A stretch of 64,000 bases of DNA, from NCBI GenBank assembly GCA_965205215.1, contig OZ242041.1:416001-480000 (forward strand). Direction: 5' to 3'. This document shows, one piece after another, positions 21,235 through 25,941 of this stretch. The stretch comes from Nitrosopumilus sp. (GTDB lineage: Archaea; Thermoproteota; Nitrososphaeria; Nitrososphaerales; Nitrosopumilaceae). The notes beneath the pieces are model-generated. The model had not been told where the DNA came from and ran no database searches. It saw only the letters and a program-made list of their open reading frames with translations. Made by a program: the position numbers and the translations under genes. How positions within the stretch are numbered: position 1 is the stretch's first letter; each line of letters opens with the position of its first letter.

Positions 21235-21741
21235 CTAGTCTGTAAATTCAGAGGCTGCCCCCGCCGAGGCCTCCTTTGTTCCCTTTATCTTCCTGACCCT
21301 GTCGCCCTCTTCTTCTATGACCTGGTCGATTCCGGCAAGCTTGTTTCTGAGGTTGTTGATTATGGCGCCCACCTCGTCGGCCTCCTCCTCGACCTCCCTC
21401 CTCTTGAGGGCCAGCTTTGTGATCCCGGCGCTCTCGTCCTCTATGTACTCGTTGACCTTTTGGAGCTTTTCCTTGAGGTTCTTGATGTCGACTGACTCGT
21501 CCTCTATGTCCTTTTCAAGCAGGGTGCGCTTGTCCTTGAGGTTCTTTATCATGACCCCGACATAGTCGATGGCCTCCTCGAGCCTTGCACGTTTGTCCAT
21601 CAGGTCCCCGATTCCTATGCGCCCGCCCGGGGCAGTCGGCGCCTCTACGACCGTCCCCTCGCTTGGCGGCCCGGCACTGTTCTCTTCTACTGCTGCCATC
21701 TCCACTTCTCCCTTCCCTTCCCTTCTGAATCTATTAAACAT
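21235..21741 (-). CDS. Coiled-coil hypothetical protein
   Basis: Long heptad-rich ORF; start lies 10 nt from the transposon left end. Confidence 0.75.
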   Translation of the reverse strand: MFNRFRREGKGEVEMAAVEENSAGPPSEGTVVEAPTAPGGRIGIGDLMDKRARLEEAIDYVGVMIKNLKDKRTLLEKDIEDESVDIKNLKEKLQKVNEYIEDESAGITKLALKRREVEEEADEVGAIINNLRNKLAGIDQVIEEEGDRVRKIKGTKEASAGAASEFTD

Positions 21742-21751
21742 TACAATCAGC

Positions 21752-21786
21752 GGTTCTAGTGCAAATTCGGGAGCTGGGCACGGCGT
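21752..21786 (+). repeat. Left terminal inverted repeat
   Basis: Reverse complement of 25568-25602 with one mismatch; begins like IS257/ISS1-type GGTTCTGTTGCAAA ends. Confidence 0.93.
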
Positions 21787-21795
21787 GATCTTCTT

Positions 21796-21981
21796 TCAAA
21801 CCTGCCGACCTGCTTCCTGCTTCAAGTATTCCCTGACCCATCGCTCCGCCTCGGCCTTGGGCGGATTGCCCTCCCGCGATATGCAGTATATGGCAAAATC
21901 GGCAAGTTGGTCGCCGTCAAGTCCTAATTTCCTTCCGCGCTCCACGAATGCCCTTACCGTACTCTTTTGACCACGGTTCAT
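21796..21981 (-). CDS. Small hypothetical cargo protein (61 aa)
   Basis: MNRGQKSTVRAFVERGRKLGLDGDQLADFAIYCISREG..; lies between the tRNA-like gene and the left TIR. Confidence 0.5.
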   Translation of the reverse strand: MNRGQKSTVRAFVERGRKLGLDGDQLADFAIYCISREGNPPKAEAERWVREYLKQEAGRQV

Positions 21982-22021
21982 GCAGTGATACAAGGCGGCC
22001 GCTACTTAATCGTATCATGTG

Positions 22022-22108
22022 CGCGGGGGGCGGGACTTGAACCCGCGGTTCACGGGGTGTGAAATGTGTTTCGTAGACACACGCTCTACCAAGCTGAGCG
22101 ACCCCCGC
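22022..22108 (-). tRNA. Non-canonical tRNA-like gene, anticodon ACG, long variable arm, G73
   Basis: GCGGGGG TC GCTC AGCTTGGTA GAGC G TGTGT CTACGAA ACACA TTTCACACCCCGTGAACC GCGGG TTCAAGT CCCGC CCCCCGC G; all four stems perfectly paired; CCA not encoded. Confidence 0.85.
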
Positions 22109-22134
22109 AAAACTTTTTATCACTATGTGGCGTA

Positions 22135-22198
22135 TGAATGATACGGTTGCCGCTGTAGACACGAATACGGGGTGTGGGCGGTATCCGTATCACATTCA
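22135..22198 (+). ncRNA. Candidate hairpin sRNA antisense to the tRNA-like RNA
   Basis: Stem TGATACGGTTGCCGC/GCGGTATCCGTATCA; loop carries GTAGACAC (=22073-22080) and ACGGGGTGTG (=22052-22061); BRE/TATA-like CGCAAAACTTTTTAT at 22106-22120. Confidence 0.6.
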
Positions 22199-23125
22199 AA
22201 CCCGCTGATCGGTGGCAATCAGGTATAGACTGCTGTTCTGAATGATGGTCTTCCACTTGTTGCGGCCCTCGGTGTGTATGCCTGCCGCCTCTGCCGGGGT
22301 CTTGCAGATTGAGTCATGCTTGCGCACGTGGTTATAGTGAACCTTCATGCCGTCAAACACCGGGGTGTGCGGACTCCGCAGGCCCCGAAACGTCTTCTCC
22401 CTATCACGAATAGTACCGTTCAGGCGCTCCATCTTGTTGTTGGACGGGTGGAAGTTGGCCCCGCTTGTCTTGCCGCTTGGGCCTATGCGCTTGCTCCTGA
22501 TTCCGGCATCACACTTGTGGTATGTCTTGTTGCCAAAGATTTTGCGGGCCGCCTTCTGGTACGCGGGCAGCTTGTCGGTGATCAGCACCGTAGGGTTCTT
22601 GCCACCTGCCGCCTTTTTGGTCATGCGAAATATGTTGTCCGCATCGTGCTTGTCCTTTGAATCCGCAAGCTCGCCCGCCAGCCAGTATCTGGTATCATCA
22701 TCCATCGTGGCAAACAGGTAGTGCTTCCTGCCGTCCACCTTGACCCACACCTCGTCCCCGCGATACCACTTGCCCACGTCGGGGGTGAGGCTGTCAGTGT
22801 ACAAAGAGGCAATCTTGGAGTATCGGTCAACCCACCTTCGTATGGTCGAATCATCAACGTCAATGCCGCGTGCCTCGAACAGGTCGGCGACCGCGTAAGA
22901 GCTCATCCCTGAATAGTAGAGATGGATTGCCTCGCTTACGATTGCCGGATCAAACTGCCTGTACCGGAATCCAAAGTTTGCAGTAAACGCCTTGCCGCAC
23001 GCGTTGCATTTGTACCTCTGAACCGAGCCGTTCTTGTTCTTGCGGACGCCGCGCCTCTTGATTTTATCGGAGCGGCAGAACTTGCAGAATGTAATGACAT
23101 CATGGGAGTCAATGTGAGTGCTCAT
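22196..23125 (-). CDS. IS6-family DDE transposase with N-terminal zinc ribbon
   Basis: CKFC..YKCNACGKAF, HTH STIRRWV, GDEVWVKV, LITDK, NNKMERLNGTIRDR; ORF intact. Confidence 0.92.
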   Translation of the reverse strand: MSTHIDSHDVITFCKFCRSDKIKRRGVRKNKNGSVQRYKCNACGKAFTANFGFRYRQFDPAIVSEAIHLYYSGMSSYAVADLFEARGIDVDDSTIRRWVDRYSKIASLYTDSLTPDVGKWYRGDEVWVKVDGRKHYLFATMDDDTRYWLAGELADSKDKHDADNIFRMTKKAAGGKNPTVLITDKLPAYQKAARKIFGNKTYHKCDAGIRSKRIGPSGKTSGANFHPSNNKMERLNGTIRDREKTFRGLRSPHTPVFDGMKVHYNHVRKHDSICKTPAEAAGIHTEGRNKWKTIIQNSSLYLIATDQRV

Positions 23126-23354
23126 ACTGCACGCCTCCCACGAATTATAAGAGAGAAAATGAAGGAGTGCTCAGAGTAACAGGCTCTCGTCATTGGCCCT
23201 GTCCGGCCTTTGACTCCTTTTTTCATCATCGCACTTGACTTCATTATACTACCTATGGATATAACAGAATATAAGTGTTGGGTGTATTGGGTAGTATAAC
23301 TATTAGTGGCAAAAAGTAGTATAATGTTATATAGGGTGTCTGAGATGTTATGGT

Positions 23355-23585
23355 ATGGGATCACGTAATCTGAAGACCATCAAGGGCAAGCCGTATCTTT
23401 ACTATGTCATATCCAAGGATGGAAAAAAGAAGGCGATCTACTGCGGGCTGGCATCAAATCACGAATCCGAGAAAAAGGCGCTTGTGCTGGAGCTTGAGGA
23501 AACATCATCGCGTATAAAGTCACTTGAGCTAAAGGCCGTTGAGATAAAATCCAAGCTGGAGGCCTTGCCGGAGGTGCAATCGTGA
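23355..23585 (+). CDS. Small basic protein with coiled-coil tail, mobile-element type
   Basis: KTIKGKPYLYYV..DGKKKAIYCG beta-hairpin motif; divergent from the transposase across an AT-rich spacer. Confidence 0.7.
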   Translation: MGSRNLKTIKGKPYLYYVISKDGKKKAIYCGLASNHESEKKALVLELEETSSRIKSLELKAVEIKSKLEALPEVQS

Positions 23586-23681
23586 TACCGCCAAGCACAC
23601 CTACCGCCAAGCACACCTACCGCCAAGCACACCTACCGCCAAGCACACCTACCGCCAAGCACACCTACCGCCAAGCACACC
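23586..23681. repeat. Perfect tandem repeat, 6 x 16 bp (TACCGCCAAGCACACC)
   Basis: Six exact copies counted, no spacers. Confidence 0.97.
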
Positions 23682-23789
23682 ATAGTTAGCGGGGGGCGAC
23701 CACCATGTCACATATCCAGCAATAGGGGCGCTATAAGTCCACCGGGGGCGGCCTGACTGCCGCCCAAGCCTAACTGGGCCAACCGTACC

Positions 23790-25013
23790 ATGTGGACTGG
23801 TGACAATCTGGACATTATGCGCGGCATGAACTCCGACTCGGTAGATCTCATTTACTTGGATCCTCCCTTTAACAGCAACAAGACATACGAGGCCCCAGTC
23901 GGCTCGGAAGCGGCGGGCGCGGCCTTCAAGGACACGTGGACATTGAGTGATCTTGACATTGCATGGCACGGCTATCTGGCAGACAAGGAGCCCGCCCTGT
24001 ATTCGACAATAGGTACGGCCCGCAGTACGCACGGCAAGTCTATGATGTCATACCTGATCATGATGGGCGTCCGACTTATTGAAATGCGACGCTTGTTAAA
24101 ATCTACGGGTTCAATCTATCTGCACTGCGATCCGACCGCATCACATTATCTCAAGATAGTTATGGATTCGATATTTGGTCATAAGAATTTTAGGAACGAA
24201 ATAGTGTGGTGTTATACTGGGCCCGGCTCTCCAAAAATGCGTCAATTTAACCGTAAACATGACACCTTGTTTTGGTATGTAAAAGGTGAAACGTGGACTT
24301 TTAACACCGATGCAGTGCGCATCAAACATCATGGAAAGACCAAAGAAAATTTTAAGGATGGATTGCGCGGTTCAGGATTCGTAGAAGGAAAATATGGTTT
24401 AGCAGAAGGCAAAGTACCTGAATCTTGGTGGGTTCAAGAGAAAGGCAACGGCTTTGCCATTGCTGCACGACAAAAACATCAATATGTCGGTTACCCTACC
24501 CAAAAACCACTGGCTCTACTAGAGCGAATAATCAAGGCGTCCAGCAATGAGGGTGACGTGATACTCGACCCCTTCTGCGGGTGCGCAACCGCCTGCGTGG
24601 TCGCGGAGCGCCTAAACAGGCAGTGGGTCGGCATCGACCTGTCATCAATGGCGCTTAAACTTGTCAGAAAGAGAATCAAGGAGAGTATCGGCATGTTCGC
24701 ATACGACATAGCAGAACGCGACGACATTCCCAAACGGACGGATCAGGGCAAGATCCCGAATTACCGCACGCACAAGCACGAGCTGTATGGCAGGCAGGAG
24801 GGCATGTGCGTGTGTGGCCAACATTTTCCGTTCAGGAATTTTACCGTAGACCACATCGTCCCGCAGAGCAAGGGCGGCACGGATCACGCAGACAACCTCC
24901 AACTACTATGCGGTGCCTGCAACAGCCTCAAGGGCAACAGGGAGCAGGCATACCTCATTGCCAAACTCAAGGAGAATGGGATCGATGCACTCATGCCCCC
25001 GATACGGGCCTGA
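23790..25013 (+). CDS. Beta-class N6/N4 DNA methyltransferase fused to C-terminal HNH domain
   Basis: YLDPPFNS, YPTQKP, LDPFCGCAT; VDHIVPQSKGGTDHADNLQLLCGACNSLKG; frame is open back to CTG 23757. Confidence 0.92.
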   Translation: MWTGDNLDIMRGMNSDSVDLIYLDPPFNSNKTYEAPVGSEAAGAAFKDTWTLSDLDIAWHGYLADKEPALYSTIGTARSTHGKSMMSYLIMMGVRLIEMRRLLKSTGSIYLHCDPTASHYLKIVMDSIFGHKNFRNEIVWCYTGPGSPKMRQFNRKHDTLFWYVKGETWTFNTDAVRIKHHGKTKENFKDGLRGSGFVEGKYGLAEGKVPESWWVQEKGNGFAIAARQKHQYVGYPTQKPLALLERIIKASSNEGDVILDPFCGCATACVVAERLNRQWVGIDLSSMALKLVRKRIKESIGMFAYDIAERDDIPKRTDQGKIPNYRTHKHELYGRQEGMCVCGQHFPFRNFTVDHIVPQSKGGTDHADNLQLLCGACNSLKGNREQAYLIAKLKENGIDALMPPIRA

Positions 25014-25055
25014 TTTTTTTGTGCCTATATCACGAATCTGCAATAGTATTCTTTC

Positions 25056-25457
25056 TTGCCCGTTTATATTGCATCTACGCCCACGTATGACGTGATGTTC
25101 GAAAGCAAAATCTCCGACGACTATGACGACAGACCCATCCCGGACAGCGTACCGATAGGCACGTTGGCGTACAGGTGGTGCCAGCATAGTGGCAATAGAG
25201 AGGCCATACACTACTCGTTCAAGCGATGGTCATTTCCGGGGGACTATGACGAGGATGAACTGAACAGGGCCATAGACGAGTCCCTTGCAAAGTATCCGGA
25301 GGCCCTAAGGGCATTCCTCGAACGCAAGAAAGACGTCGAGGATGATGGGAATCTCATGTGCAGCTATCCGGCAGAGGATCCCACGCGCACGGACGATTCA
25401 GATAGCAGTGCCTCGCAACCGAATTCTCAACAGTACCGTCCCTTGAACACTTATTAA
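25056..25457 (+). CDS. Acidic hypothetical cargo protein
   Basis: ORF directly after the MTase-HNH gene; likely start ATG 25095. Confidence 0.5.
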   Translation: MPVYIASTPTYDVMFESKISDDYDDRPIPDSVPIGTLAYRWCQHSGNREAIHYSFKRWSFPGDYDEDELNRAIDESLAKYPEALRAFLERKKDVEDDGNLMCSYPAEDPTRTDDSDSSASQPNSQQYRPLNTY

Positions 25458-25567
25458 CTGACATGCAGGCAAAAGAACGGGGGCGCGATTATCTCTACCC
25501 ATTCTAGAGACGTCGCATTGTCACGGCTTATCGGCCCCCAATTTTCATAATGCGTCTTCATGTTCTG

Positions 25568-25602
25568 ACGCCGTGCCTAGCTCCCGAATTTGCACTAGAA
25601 CC
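25568..25602 (-). repeat. Right terminal inverted repeat
   Basis: Inverted copy of 21752-21786, followed by the duplicated CAATCAGC. Confidence 0.93.
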
Positions 25603-25941
25603 CAATCAGCCCCGGCCGCTTGGCATAAAAAGATAGGCCCCGGCACCGCCCCCGCGCGGGCATCGCGCACCTGCATAACGGTCGGAAACTAGATTGTCCG
25701 GTGCAGTCCAGAACCACCGTCCGGCCCGAGAAAATGCCCGTCCCTCTCATGCCCCTAAAGCATGGCGGTGCACATATTTTCAATTACTGGGTCGTATGGA
25801 CCAAGCCCGGCGCATCTCACGACCCGGGCGTATGTGAAGGGCCGTCTCGGCGTGTGGCGGCGGCCGCAGCAGCAGCGTGTCGGTAGGAGCACGCCGCCGC
25901 CGATCTCAAGATATAAAAAGTGGATTTCCAAGTCGGCAGGC

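Follow-up and report, generated by a model that had tools for sequence, protein, structure and literature searches.

A serine-type tRNA gene with an arginine anticodon, and an adjoining hairpin whose loop could pair with it, on a transposon of an ammonia-oxidising archaeon

Why would a mobile element carry a tRNA gene and, directly beside it, a hairpin whose loop repeats two pieces of that gene? The question is raised by a window of 64,000 nucleotides (the whole stretch of DNA analysed here) from a Nitrosopumilus genome, in which an earlier note had singled out such a pair as a candidate all-RNA toxin–antitoxin module. The answer that we favour, tentatively and as one possibility among several, is that a plus-strand antisense RNA pairs with the tRNA carried as cargo and also runs antisense into the transposase gene.

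Both features are transposon-borne, as the note had held: they lie within a 3.85-kb, cargo-bearing, IS6-like transposon (21752–25602). Its 35-bp terminal inverted repeats (left, 21752–21786, plus strand; right, 25568–25602, minus strand; 97% identity) are enclosed by two identical copies of the target-site duplication CAATCAGC, read from the sequence at 21744–21751 and 25603–25610 (unstranded). A duplication of 8 bp, as present here together with the inverted ends, is typical of IS6. The DDE transposase (22196–23125, minus strand), which has an N-terminal zinc finger, matched PF13610 (E 1.7e-11; score 44.9, cut-off 27) and reached 106.5 bits against the IS6-family model NF033587 of NCBIfam, under its 125-bit cut-off. 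A related end sequence adjoins related transposase genes in L021 and L038. On the same strand, ORF61 (61 aa, 21796–21981, from the open-reading-frame list) is either cargo or an operon partner of the transposase; it had no homologue besides itself among 5.8 billion proteins, no Pfam or NCBIfam match and no usable atlas match, and metagenome contigs gave only a spurious bacterial locus. The plus strand carries the apparently leaderless ORF76 (76 aa, 23355–23585; 5′ end predicted at 23348–23360 from promoter-like sites at 23314 and 23321), six tandem copies of the 16-nt unit TACCGCCAAGCACACC found by repeat search (23586–23681), and, as cargo, an N6/N4 DNA methyltransferase fused to an HNH nuclease domain (23790–25013; PF01555, E 1.6e-46; PF01844, E 1.2e-13). 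A related copy of the transposon was recovered from run X4, which covers the transposase and, on a single 559-nt contig (record 6), the ORF61 region too (the contigs of runs X3 and X5 hold transposase parts only). On that contig, the ORF61-like region (~94% identity) begins 74 nt after the transposase end, and the tRNA and the hairpin are both missing, a joint absence that speaks for antisense control of the one by the other but not for the note's fuller interpretation.

The minus-strand gene that had been described as tRNA-like is a class II (serine-type) tRNA with anticodon ACG according to both ARAGORN (22021–22108) and Rfam (RF00005 at 22022–22108; 56.3 bits, gathering score 29). Its acceptor stem has 7 bp and its T stem 5 bp, all universal tRNA positions are intact, and it combines a G30–C40 pair with the discriminator G73 (A73 in host tRNA-Leu genes) and an 18-nt variable region with a 5-bp stem (UUCAC/GUGAA). 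The layout of this region equals that of the variable arms of host tRNA-Ser and of a class II tRNA(GAA) family of the genus, which argues for a true variable arm, and we set aside an archaeal tRNA intron; no bulge–helix–bulge motif was seen in the tRNA on inspection by eye. Identity is 67% to host tRNA-Ser(GCU) and 63–71% to the GAA family but 51% to host tRNA-Arg(GCG), so that the long-armed body is not the class I body of an arginine tRNA, whereas the anticodon is an arginine anticodon (CGU codons) and not a serine one. The variable arm, G73 and G30–C40 are given as serine determinants acting independently of the anticodon in section 26 of PMC9976931. Because SerRS ignores the anticodon and the body is of the serine type, SerRS should charge the transposon tRNA, making it a potential Arg-to-Ser missense tRNA.

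Harm from such a molecule is plausible by analogy with allo-tRNAs and with engineered tRNA-Ser variants, in line with the note's supposition. In the sections of Mukai et al. 2017 (PMC5389517) considered here, allo-tRNAs, which have serine identity and sense anticodons, caused growth arrest and death of E. coli on induction; this supports antisense control as well as an addiction role. Allo-tRNAs (from Acidobacteria and other bacteria) resemble the transposon tRNA in being natural, long-armed and serine-type (for the transposon tRNA, serine identity is predicted from sequence features) with a foreign anticodon; however, they are bacterial and have 8/4 or 9/3 acceptor/T stems, whereas the transposon tRNA is archaeal, has the 7/5 arrangement and A34, and adjoins a complementary hairpin. 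Nematode nev-tRNAs are likewise class II tRNAs with anticodons for neither leucine nor serine, but are eukaryotic and chromosomal, and the abstract of PMC3333845 describes no antisense partner. The element's own genes do not appear to be recoded (CGT as serine), a reading that we rejected because the CGT codons mostly align with arginine or lysine in relatives: transposase codon 240 with R in five of five, methylase codon 151 with R or K in seven of seven, and methylase codon 155 with R in three of seven and variable residues in the rest.

The GAA family, of which at least 13 of the 151 genus genomes have a member, shares with the transposon tRNA the D-arm layout, G73 and the long variable arm, and in the GAA tRNA of genome G350 the 24-nt context of the anticodon arm is that of the transposon tRNA except for the anticodon. 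It differs in its acceptor stem (GUCAGGG), its conserved GAA anticodon and its own sense promoter, and its genes neither lie on the present transposon nor have a cognate hairpin (0 of 15 loci). Words of the anticodon loop that occur near GAA-family genes are scattered, AT-rich and outside comparable hairpins, and were discarded as candidate partners.

Next to the transposon tRNA gene, inverted-repeat search and folding recovered the hairpin on the plus strand (22139–22192), with a stem of 15 positions (arms 22139–22153 and 22178–22192, 87% complementary) and a 24-nt loop (22154–22177); the plus-strand fold extends outwards to ~22135–22198. The stem contains 13 Watson–Crick pairs, one T.T mismatch and G22149.T22182, which is paired only on the plus strand, leaving the minus strand with two mismatches. 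Folding energies were −28.0 kcal/mol (z −3.6) for the plus strand and −20.9 kcal/mol (z −2.8) for the minus strand, an advantage of 7 kcal/mol that fits a plus-strand RNA and the strand preference suggested before. A search for further copies, which the note had asked for, returned none in the genome itself, 41 relatives, 151 genus genomes, 201 family genomes, a species-representative collection or viral contigs. The only match in the species-representative collection was a lone one in a Paenibacillus contig, taken as chance. A further search of viral contigs brought up ordinary phage tRNA arrays. Confinement to a single locus counts against antisense control and equally against an addiction role.

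Known RNA classes did not account for the hairpin. Rfam yielded nothing besides the tRNA in 21800–22400 up to E 10. Archaeal box C/D guide RNAs have the consensus boxes RUGAUGA (C) and CUGA (D), neither of which is suitably placed here. An IS110 bridge RNA was rejected since the transposase is of the DDE IS6/IS240 type and both loop blocks correspond to a single strand of the tRNA gene; H/ACA RNA, a T-box-like RNA and an integrase att-site remnant do not fit in order, strand or neighbouring genes. The order of the blocks likewise speaks against a tandem copy of the tRNA that has decayed, of the kind in the G350 array.

The loop blocks are direct repeats of the tRNA gene. Block A′, GTAGACAC (22155–22162, plus strand), is an 8-mer identical to 22073–22080, which in the tRNA is the anticodon-arm block GUGUCUAC (minus strand, tRNA positions 28–35); block B′, ACGGGGTGTG (22167–22176, plus strand), is a 10-mer identical to 22052–22061, the variable-arm block CACACCCCGU (minus strand). 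Their order is swapped in the loop. In a plus-strand RNA, block A′ complements the 5′ strand of the anticodon stem together with anticodon-loop positions 32–36 (anticodon 34–36), and block B′ complements the variable loop and part of its stem. The four flanking differences are transitions, all of them G.U-compatible for a plus-strand RNA only, which gives runs of 10 bp (2 G.U) and 13 bp (3 G.U) when G.U is allowed. Similarity then ends abruptly, with none extending around the blocks; taken with the one-sided G.U compatibility, this is more easily reconciled with selection for pairing than with decay of a longer duplicate. The repeats, their permuted order and their complementarity thus reproduce what the earlier note had read. 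Blocks and hairpin are real and unlikely to be chance.

A coincidence beside an unrelated hairpin we accordingly regard as very improbable, even though pieces of the pattern are common. Eight-mers shared by a tRNA and its 150-nt flank occur in about 20 of 84 flanks, G.U-allowed runs of 9–13 bp are near chance level in 300-nt flanks (95th percentile 11, maximum 13 in 200 shuffles), further 7-mers in the region are no more than chance would give, 10- to 12-mers of the loop recur elsewhere in the genome, windows with 18 of 24 positions covered number about 20 in 2.1 Mb (mostly through G-runs), and 64 kb had been scanned for oddities. The joint occurrence of a 10-mer and an 8-mer from one 24-nt loop in the nearest gene (88 nt) is nevertheless rare, with an analytic estimate of about 1e-4 to 1e-3 that allows for composition and choice. 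Two such blocks within 60 nt were present in the ±500-nt flanks at 0 of 15 related class II tRNA loci, so that none has a cognate element, which also weakens the case for antisense control. Across 84 host tRNA-call flanks, the 10 + 8 match was confined to the transposon locus (1/84); the three other flanks with a match of at least 10 were one false tRNA in a repeat and two tRNA-Ile flanks.

Non-functional local duplication is a serious rival, to which we give only somewhat less probability than to antisense control. The hairpin would then be an ordinary structure that either closes the transposase message (3′ end) or opens an antisense RNA against the transposase (5′ end). Template switching or patch repair, acting locally, would have carried the blocks into its loop from the tRNA gene, which is 100 bp off, and the blocks would exert no control over the tRNA. 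The hairpin abuts the transposase stop codon (22196–22198), a plus-strand RNA would cover the 3′ part of the transposase gene in antisense up to T-runs at 22540 or 22614, the perfection of the blocks suggests recent copying, and the hairpin is confined to one locus. A third copy of CACACCCCG (22362–22370), within the transposase gene, shows that the word recurs locally without any hairpin. Yet, in a hairpin with a clean stem of 15 positions, two separate patches would have had to account for 18 of 24 loop positions, with all four flanking differences G.U-compatible, which is much coincidence, and neither the swapped order, which one duplication is not expected to give, nor the abrupt end of similarity is in keeping with simple copying.

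A promoter-like site points to the plus strand, as the note had also proposed. Scored with a matrix built from 44 host tRNA promoters (host median 11.8 bits), the BRE/TATA-like site AAAACTTTTTAT (22109–22120, plus strand) reached 13.9 bits, which places it in the top 4e-5 of genome positions and makes it the best site in 21600–25800, 4.2 kb. It lies against the 5′ end of the tRNA gene and points away from it into the hairpin; the predicted 5′ end of the RNA is near 22143–22148, spaced as in 40 of the 44 host tRNA promoters. Applied to ORF76, this matrix places the leaderless start correctly. Part of the match (TTTTTAT), however, is the reverse of an A-rich leader also present at the related tRNAs, and the site could therefore be partly a by-product of that leader.

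The same matrix found no promoter at the proper distance from the tRNA, whose own expression is therefore doubtful, and neither the tRNA nor ORF61 has one of 8 bits or more; in addition, a U4 tract directly precedes the tRNA. The tRNA may thus be barely expressed, which speaks against antisense control and, the putative toxin being the tRNA, against addiction. The missing promoters suit a minus-strand reading that we consider improbable, in which the hairpin lies within one transposase–hairpin–tRNA–ORF61 transcript, the tRNA serves as a processing signal whose RNase P and RNase Z cuts split two messages, and the hairpin protects the new 3′ end while its same-sense loop copies modulate precursor folding or act as a decoy. 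The operon-like spacing in the run X4 contig and the fact that the hairpin folds on the minus strand too are consistent with it. But same-sense blocks are unable to pair with the blocks that they copy, the stem is weaker on that strand, the strong promoter points the opposite way, and the U4 tract lies before the tRNA.

The possibility that the repeated words are DNA sites is also remote. GGTGTG/CACACC words recur in the tRNA gene, the loop, the transposase gene and the six tandem repeats, where they could bind a transposon-encoded protein: the transposon contains 11 copies of CACACC where 1.25 are expected, and CACACCCC is found three times within 320 bp against 52 times genome-wide. Six of the 11 CACACC copies, though, come from the one tandem array; the likeness between tandem unit and hairpin falls short of significance (p about 0.09) and was set aside; the third copy lies within a coding stretch in which relatives carry similar words; and the GTAGACAC block and the hairpin would be left unexplained.

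Control of the transposon tRNA by a small RNA from the adjoining hairpin could thus follow from the complementarity of the loop. In the antisense reading that we favour, the tRNA, if made and charged with serine, would insert serine at arginine codons. The host-type promoter would fire in the opposite direction and give a plus-strand transcript that starts in a stable hairpin. In trans, this RNA would pair with the tRNA or its precursor, beginning loop to loop, and would keep it from folding, processing, charging or use; in cis, it would be antisense to the 3′ part of the transposase gene. The analysis shows the sequences and their complementarity, the strand bias of the stem, the promoter-like site with its spacing, the serine-type body and the borders of the transposon; we infer all four of the steps on which this reading depends: production of either RNA, their pairing in the cell, serylation of the tRNA and its harm. 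Computed energies favour the pairing, with about −18 kcal/mol for both blocks together, opening costs included. On the other side, the loop taken as a single duplex is predicted to bind other host tRNAs almost as well (−23.4 versus −22.0 kcal/mol), a folded and modified tRNA is a poor antisense target, and a minus-strand read-through transcript, perfectly complementary to the plus-strand RNA, would compete. No RNA run was found among the public runs. RNAcofold returned no interaction between loop and tRNA; loop–loop pairing is beyond its model.

A stronger claim appears rather doubtful to us: that a missense tRNA travels on the element with a small RNA dedicated to holding it in check by pairing with its anticodon arm and its synthetase-recognition arm, and that the two form either an all-RNA addiction module or a device for switching mistranslation on and off. 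An addiction role is pure inference and, taken singly, has little probability. The tRNA would be a stable toxin and the plus-strand hairpin RNA a labile antitoxin, so that a cell that lost the transposon would die or be slowed. All points in favour of antisense control apply here too, and PMC5389517, as far as we draw on it, places allo-tRNA genes near toxin–antitoxin loci, one of them overlapping a transposon-related open reading frame (the word ‘antisense’ does not occur in its main text). However, CGU is rare in the host (3.8 per 1,000 codons), which also has a normal tRNA-Arg(GCG) to compete for it, related transposon copies do without the tRNA–hairpin pair, and recurrence at other loci, by which an RNA–RNA toxin–antitoxin pair would be recognized, was seen neither in the hairpin searches nor at the 15 related tRNA loci.

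The statement that no system of this kind had been described needs amending. RNA–RNA toxin–antitoxin pairs exist and occur in archaea (CreTA, type VIII; the parts of PMC8501985 and PMC9458426 used here), which gives the proposed system a precedent as a pair made up entirely of RNA, although its mechanism would not be the same. In CreTA, transcription of the toxin is repressed by a crRNA-like guide, the antitoxin, which depends on Cascade for this (same sources), whereas the transposon has no CRISPR repeat and no Cas gene, and the CreTA toxin sequesters a tRNA (‘tRNA-sequestering CreT toxins’ in the title of PMC8501985) whereas here the toxin would itself be a tRNA.

A further comparison is with antisense RNAs of insertion sequences and plasmids. 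IS10 RNA-OUT and CopA/CopT begin pairing through hairpin loops and are known to act on the overlapping message only. The transposon hairpin would share with them a promoter inside the element or at its end, a small RNA, a loop presenting the pairing bases and an antisense overlap with the transposase gene; the difference is that the two blocks of the present loop, in exchanged order, correspond to another gene beside it.

If the pairing is true, the hairpin would yield the first known example of a small RNA devoted to the silencing of a single tRNA, and the tRNA would be the first to act as the harmful partner in a mobile element’s system of maintenance or regulation. The tRNA deserves notice even apart from the hairpin, as it is transposon-borne, joins a serine body to an arginine anticodon and has an anticodon starting with A; ANN anticodons are nearly absent across 167 archaeal genomes, according to the portion of PMC6000648 relied on here. 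Together with the GAA family, it suggests that ammonia oxidisers from the sea and from sponges harbour a set of unusual class II tRNAs still to be explored, a set that bears on the natural origin of genetic-code deviations and mistranslation.

The host of the transposon is an ammonia-oxidizing archaeon, given that its genome (G000; a single 2.1-Mb contig, C1, with approximately 60% G+C, of which the window covers G000:C1:416001–480000) encodes archaeal AmoA (389 bits) and that a thermosome gene and a Snf7-like gene neighbour the locus. The inverted repeats (21752–21786 and 25568–25602; 34/35 identical) and a copy of CAATCAGC abutting each end on the outer side define a 3851-bp element that duplicated 8 bp of its target, bearing out the transposon proposed in the earlier note. 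From left to right it contains ORF61(−), the tRNA(−), the hairpin, an IS6/IS240-like DDE transposase(−), ORF76(+), six tandem repeats, a methyltransferase–HNH fusion(+) and ORF133(+) (ORF61 and ORF76 are small ORFs of 61 and 76 aa). Transposase and ORF76 are separated by an AT-rich divergent region (23220–23340) with several short inverted repeats, including GGTAGTATAA/TTATACTACC, and, on either strand, several sequences resembling promoters. The repeat array (23586–23681; six exact copies of the 16-nt unit TACCGCCAAGCACACC) starts directly after the ORF76 stop and ends ~100 nt before the gene for the fusion protein (23790–25013, +), a transposon-cargo N6/N4 DNA methyltransferase with a C-terminal HNH nuclease domain whose family relatives are often adjoined by related transposases (for example, in the relative G079). 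The resemblance between TACCGCCAAGCACACC and the 3′ part of the hairpin was not significant. Related transposase sequence is present in public sequencing runs, a sponge metagenome among them, and short 3′-end remnants of related transposases in the host (G000:C1:973195–973323, 652738–652870 and 916595–916641; related terminal repeats lie beside the first two) resemble decayed or miniature members of that IS group. Relatives differ in what separates the transposase stop from the left end: the interval spans only ~20 nt in G079 (locus L021), is filled by a different small ORF in G276 (L038) and, in a contig from public run X4, an ORF61-like region (~94% identity) is followed by 74 other letters replacing 21982–22234. 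The tRNA and hairpin are thus cargo, present or absent jointly.

Both ARAGORN and Rfam call the tRNA (22021/22022–22108, −), which is 88 nt long with an 18-nt variable region containing a 5-bp stem, discriminator G, a G30–C40 pair and all universal positions intact (U8, A14, G18G19, U33 and the GUUCAAGU T-loop region). Identity is 67% to host tRNA-Ser(GCU), 58–63% to the host's remaining tRNAs for Ser and Leu, and 51% to its tRNA-Arg(GCG); among 40 relatives, the closest tRNAs (~70% identity) were tRNA-Ser(GCU) in 11/11 loci scanned. Given these serine-type features and closest identities, the gene looks like a serine acceptor reading CGU, which the host uses rarely (3.8 per 1000 codons). The host's own tRNA-Arg set comprises GCG, UCG, CCG and UCU, and ANN anticodons are reported to be nearly absent across 167 archaeal genomes (PMC6000648). 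A role as recoder of its carrier was ruled out by alignment, as the transposon's own CGT codons match Arg or Lys in relatives. Elsewhere in the host, ARAGORN calls of 89–97 nt as Pro(AGG), Ile(GAU), Val(CAC) and Leu(CAA) (G000:C1:721812–721903, 1241890–1241978, 1259788–1259878 and 1130113–1130209, respectively) are probably misread tRNAs with introns at unusual positions, and calls at 514706, 700905, 1208693 and 1434760 look false. The tRNA-Ile genes at 1241890 and 1897618 share direct repeats (15 and 11 nt) with their own flanks, which may represent attachment sites copied by integrated elements.

A pattern search (anticodon arm first, acceptor and D-arm second) recovered a class II tRNA(GAA) family from 13 or more of the 151 genomes searched in the genus. 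Its members share the acceptor stem GUCAGGG, G73 and a long V-arm, and combine a body of the serine type with a conserved GAA anticodon, that of phenylalanine. Anticodon stems covary around a constant YUGAAAA loop, and family members are, on this comparative evidence, maintained as RNAs. Relative G350 (L059/L111, G350:C1:406300–408300) carries four tandem units of ~292 nt, some degenerate; relatives G009 and G342 each carry two copies, 25–37 kb apart and inverted, and ~800 nt downstream of one G009 copy lies an ORF (L064:2354–3097) that weakly matches tyrosine recombinases (E 7e-4, short of the Pfam cut-off). Loci holding the family include L049–L060 and L103–L109. In a 24-nt anticodon-arm pattern, the tRNA of the window and a G350 copy have all 21/21 specified bases in common, the three anticodon positions alone differing. 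No two-block cognate element was found within 500 nt of related tRNAs (0/15 loci).

The hairpin lies 31 bases upstream of the tRNA 5′ end (arms 22139–22153 and 22178–22192, with 24 nt between), and its loop is as the earlier note had described, with two blocks in permuted order. The word GTAGACAC is identical, on the same DNA strand, to 22073–22080 of the tRNA gene (anticodon arm, positions 28–35), and ACGGGGTGTG to 22052–22061 (in the variable arm, the 5-nt loop flanked by the final 3 bases of the 5′ stem strand and the initial 2 of the 3′ strand); compared with the gene, the two blocks have exchanged places. A decayed tRNA duplicate was rejected, as similarity stops abruptly at the block edges, the blocks stand in exchanged order, and together they occupy 18/24 loop positions of a clean stem. 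Chance is a very improbable source of the match, and DNA-level sites are an equally improbable explanation. CACACCCCG recurs within the transposase ORF at 22362–22370 (minus-strand sense), which brings the count to three within 320 bp (tRNA, loop and transposase ORF), against 52 genome-wide for the 8-mer CACACCCC. This recurrence shows that other local causes can produce such words, and it lends some weight to a serious rival, a recent, non-functional templated copying of tRNA words into the loop, which we regard as possible but rather unlikely. The stem contains one T.T mismatch and one G.T pair usable on the plus strand only, and folding energies (−28.0 kcal/mol on plus, −20.9 on minus) agree with the plus-strand preference claimed earlier; a minus-strand processing or decoy role for the hairpin seems improbable.

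As plus-strand RNA, the loop could form 10 bp with tRNA positions 27–36 and 12–13 bp with the variable arm, reproducing the extended pairings first suggested. Duplex energies are −13.4 (anticodon arm) and −21.0 kcal/mol (variable arm) and opening costs ~9 and ~7 kcal/mol, giving for both blocks together a net of ~−18 kcal/mol that leaves out tertiary structure, modifications and closed-loop geometry. As a single duplex, other host tRNAs were computed to be bound nearly as well, and modelled specificity for the tRNA of the window is a matter of the two-site match only. A 12-nt promoter matrix was learned upstream of 44 host tRNA genes (excluding the tRNA of the window and six questionable calls), 40 of which have the motif 34–39 nt ahead of the mature 5′ end. 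The BRE/TATA-like box noted earlier, AAAACTTTTTAT (22109–22120, +), scores 13.9 bits (host median, 11.8), within the top 4e-5 of genome positions and best between 21600 and 25800; its predicted 5′ end (~22143–22148, +) falls within the hairpin 5′ arm. This score calls for caution, in that the T-rich half of the box is the reverse of the A-rich leader directly before the tRNA, which is common to the GAA family. The same matrix predicts a start for ORF76 that coincides with its ATG. Past the hairpin, T-runs first occur on the plus strand at 22540 and 22614, and a plus-strand RNA would cover, in antisense, the 3′-terminal third of the transposase gene. For the minus-strand tRNA, the matrix found nothing better than a misplaced site at −18 (8.0 bits) and another at −41 (4.1 bits); a U4 tract lies directly ahead of its 5′ end. 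GAA-family tRNAs carry sense promoters with normal spacing.

Known serine-type tRNAs whose anticodons are foreign include bacterial allo-tRNAs, toxic when induced and located near toxin–antitoxin loci and a transposon-related ORF (PMC5389517), and nematode nev-tRNAs (PMC3333845); RNA–RNA toxin–antitoxin pairs are already known as CreTA (PMC8501985 and PMC9458426). A limited literature search returned no precedent for a DDE transposon carrying an archaeal class II tRNA of 7/5 arrangement whose arginine anticodon is of the ANN type, or for a small RNA with a hairpin loop matching two arms of a neighbouring tRNA. An addiction module proper, in which the hairpin would be the antitoxin to a harmful tRNA, is doubtful: it adds further conjectural steps beyond antisense regulation, and the candidate toxin tRNA is without an evident promoter of its own. 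The promoter, strand bias and block flanks fit an antisense model, and we tentatively propose, from a single locus and sequence alone, that the hairpin RNA may act as an antisense regulator of the transposon-borne tRNA.
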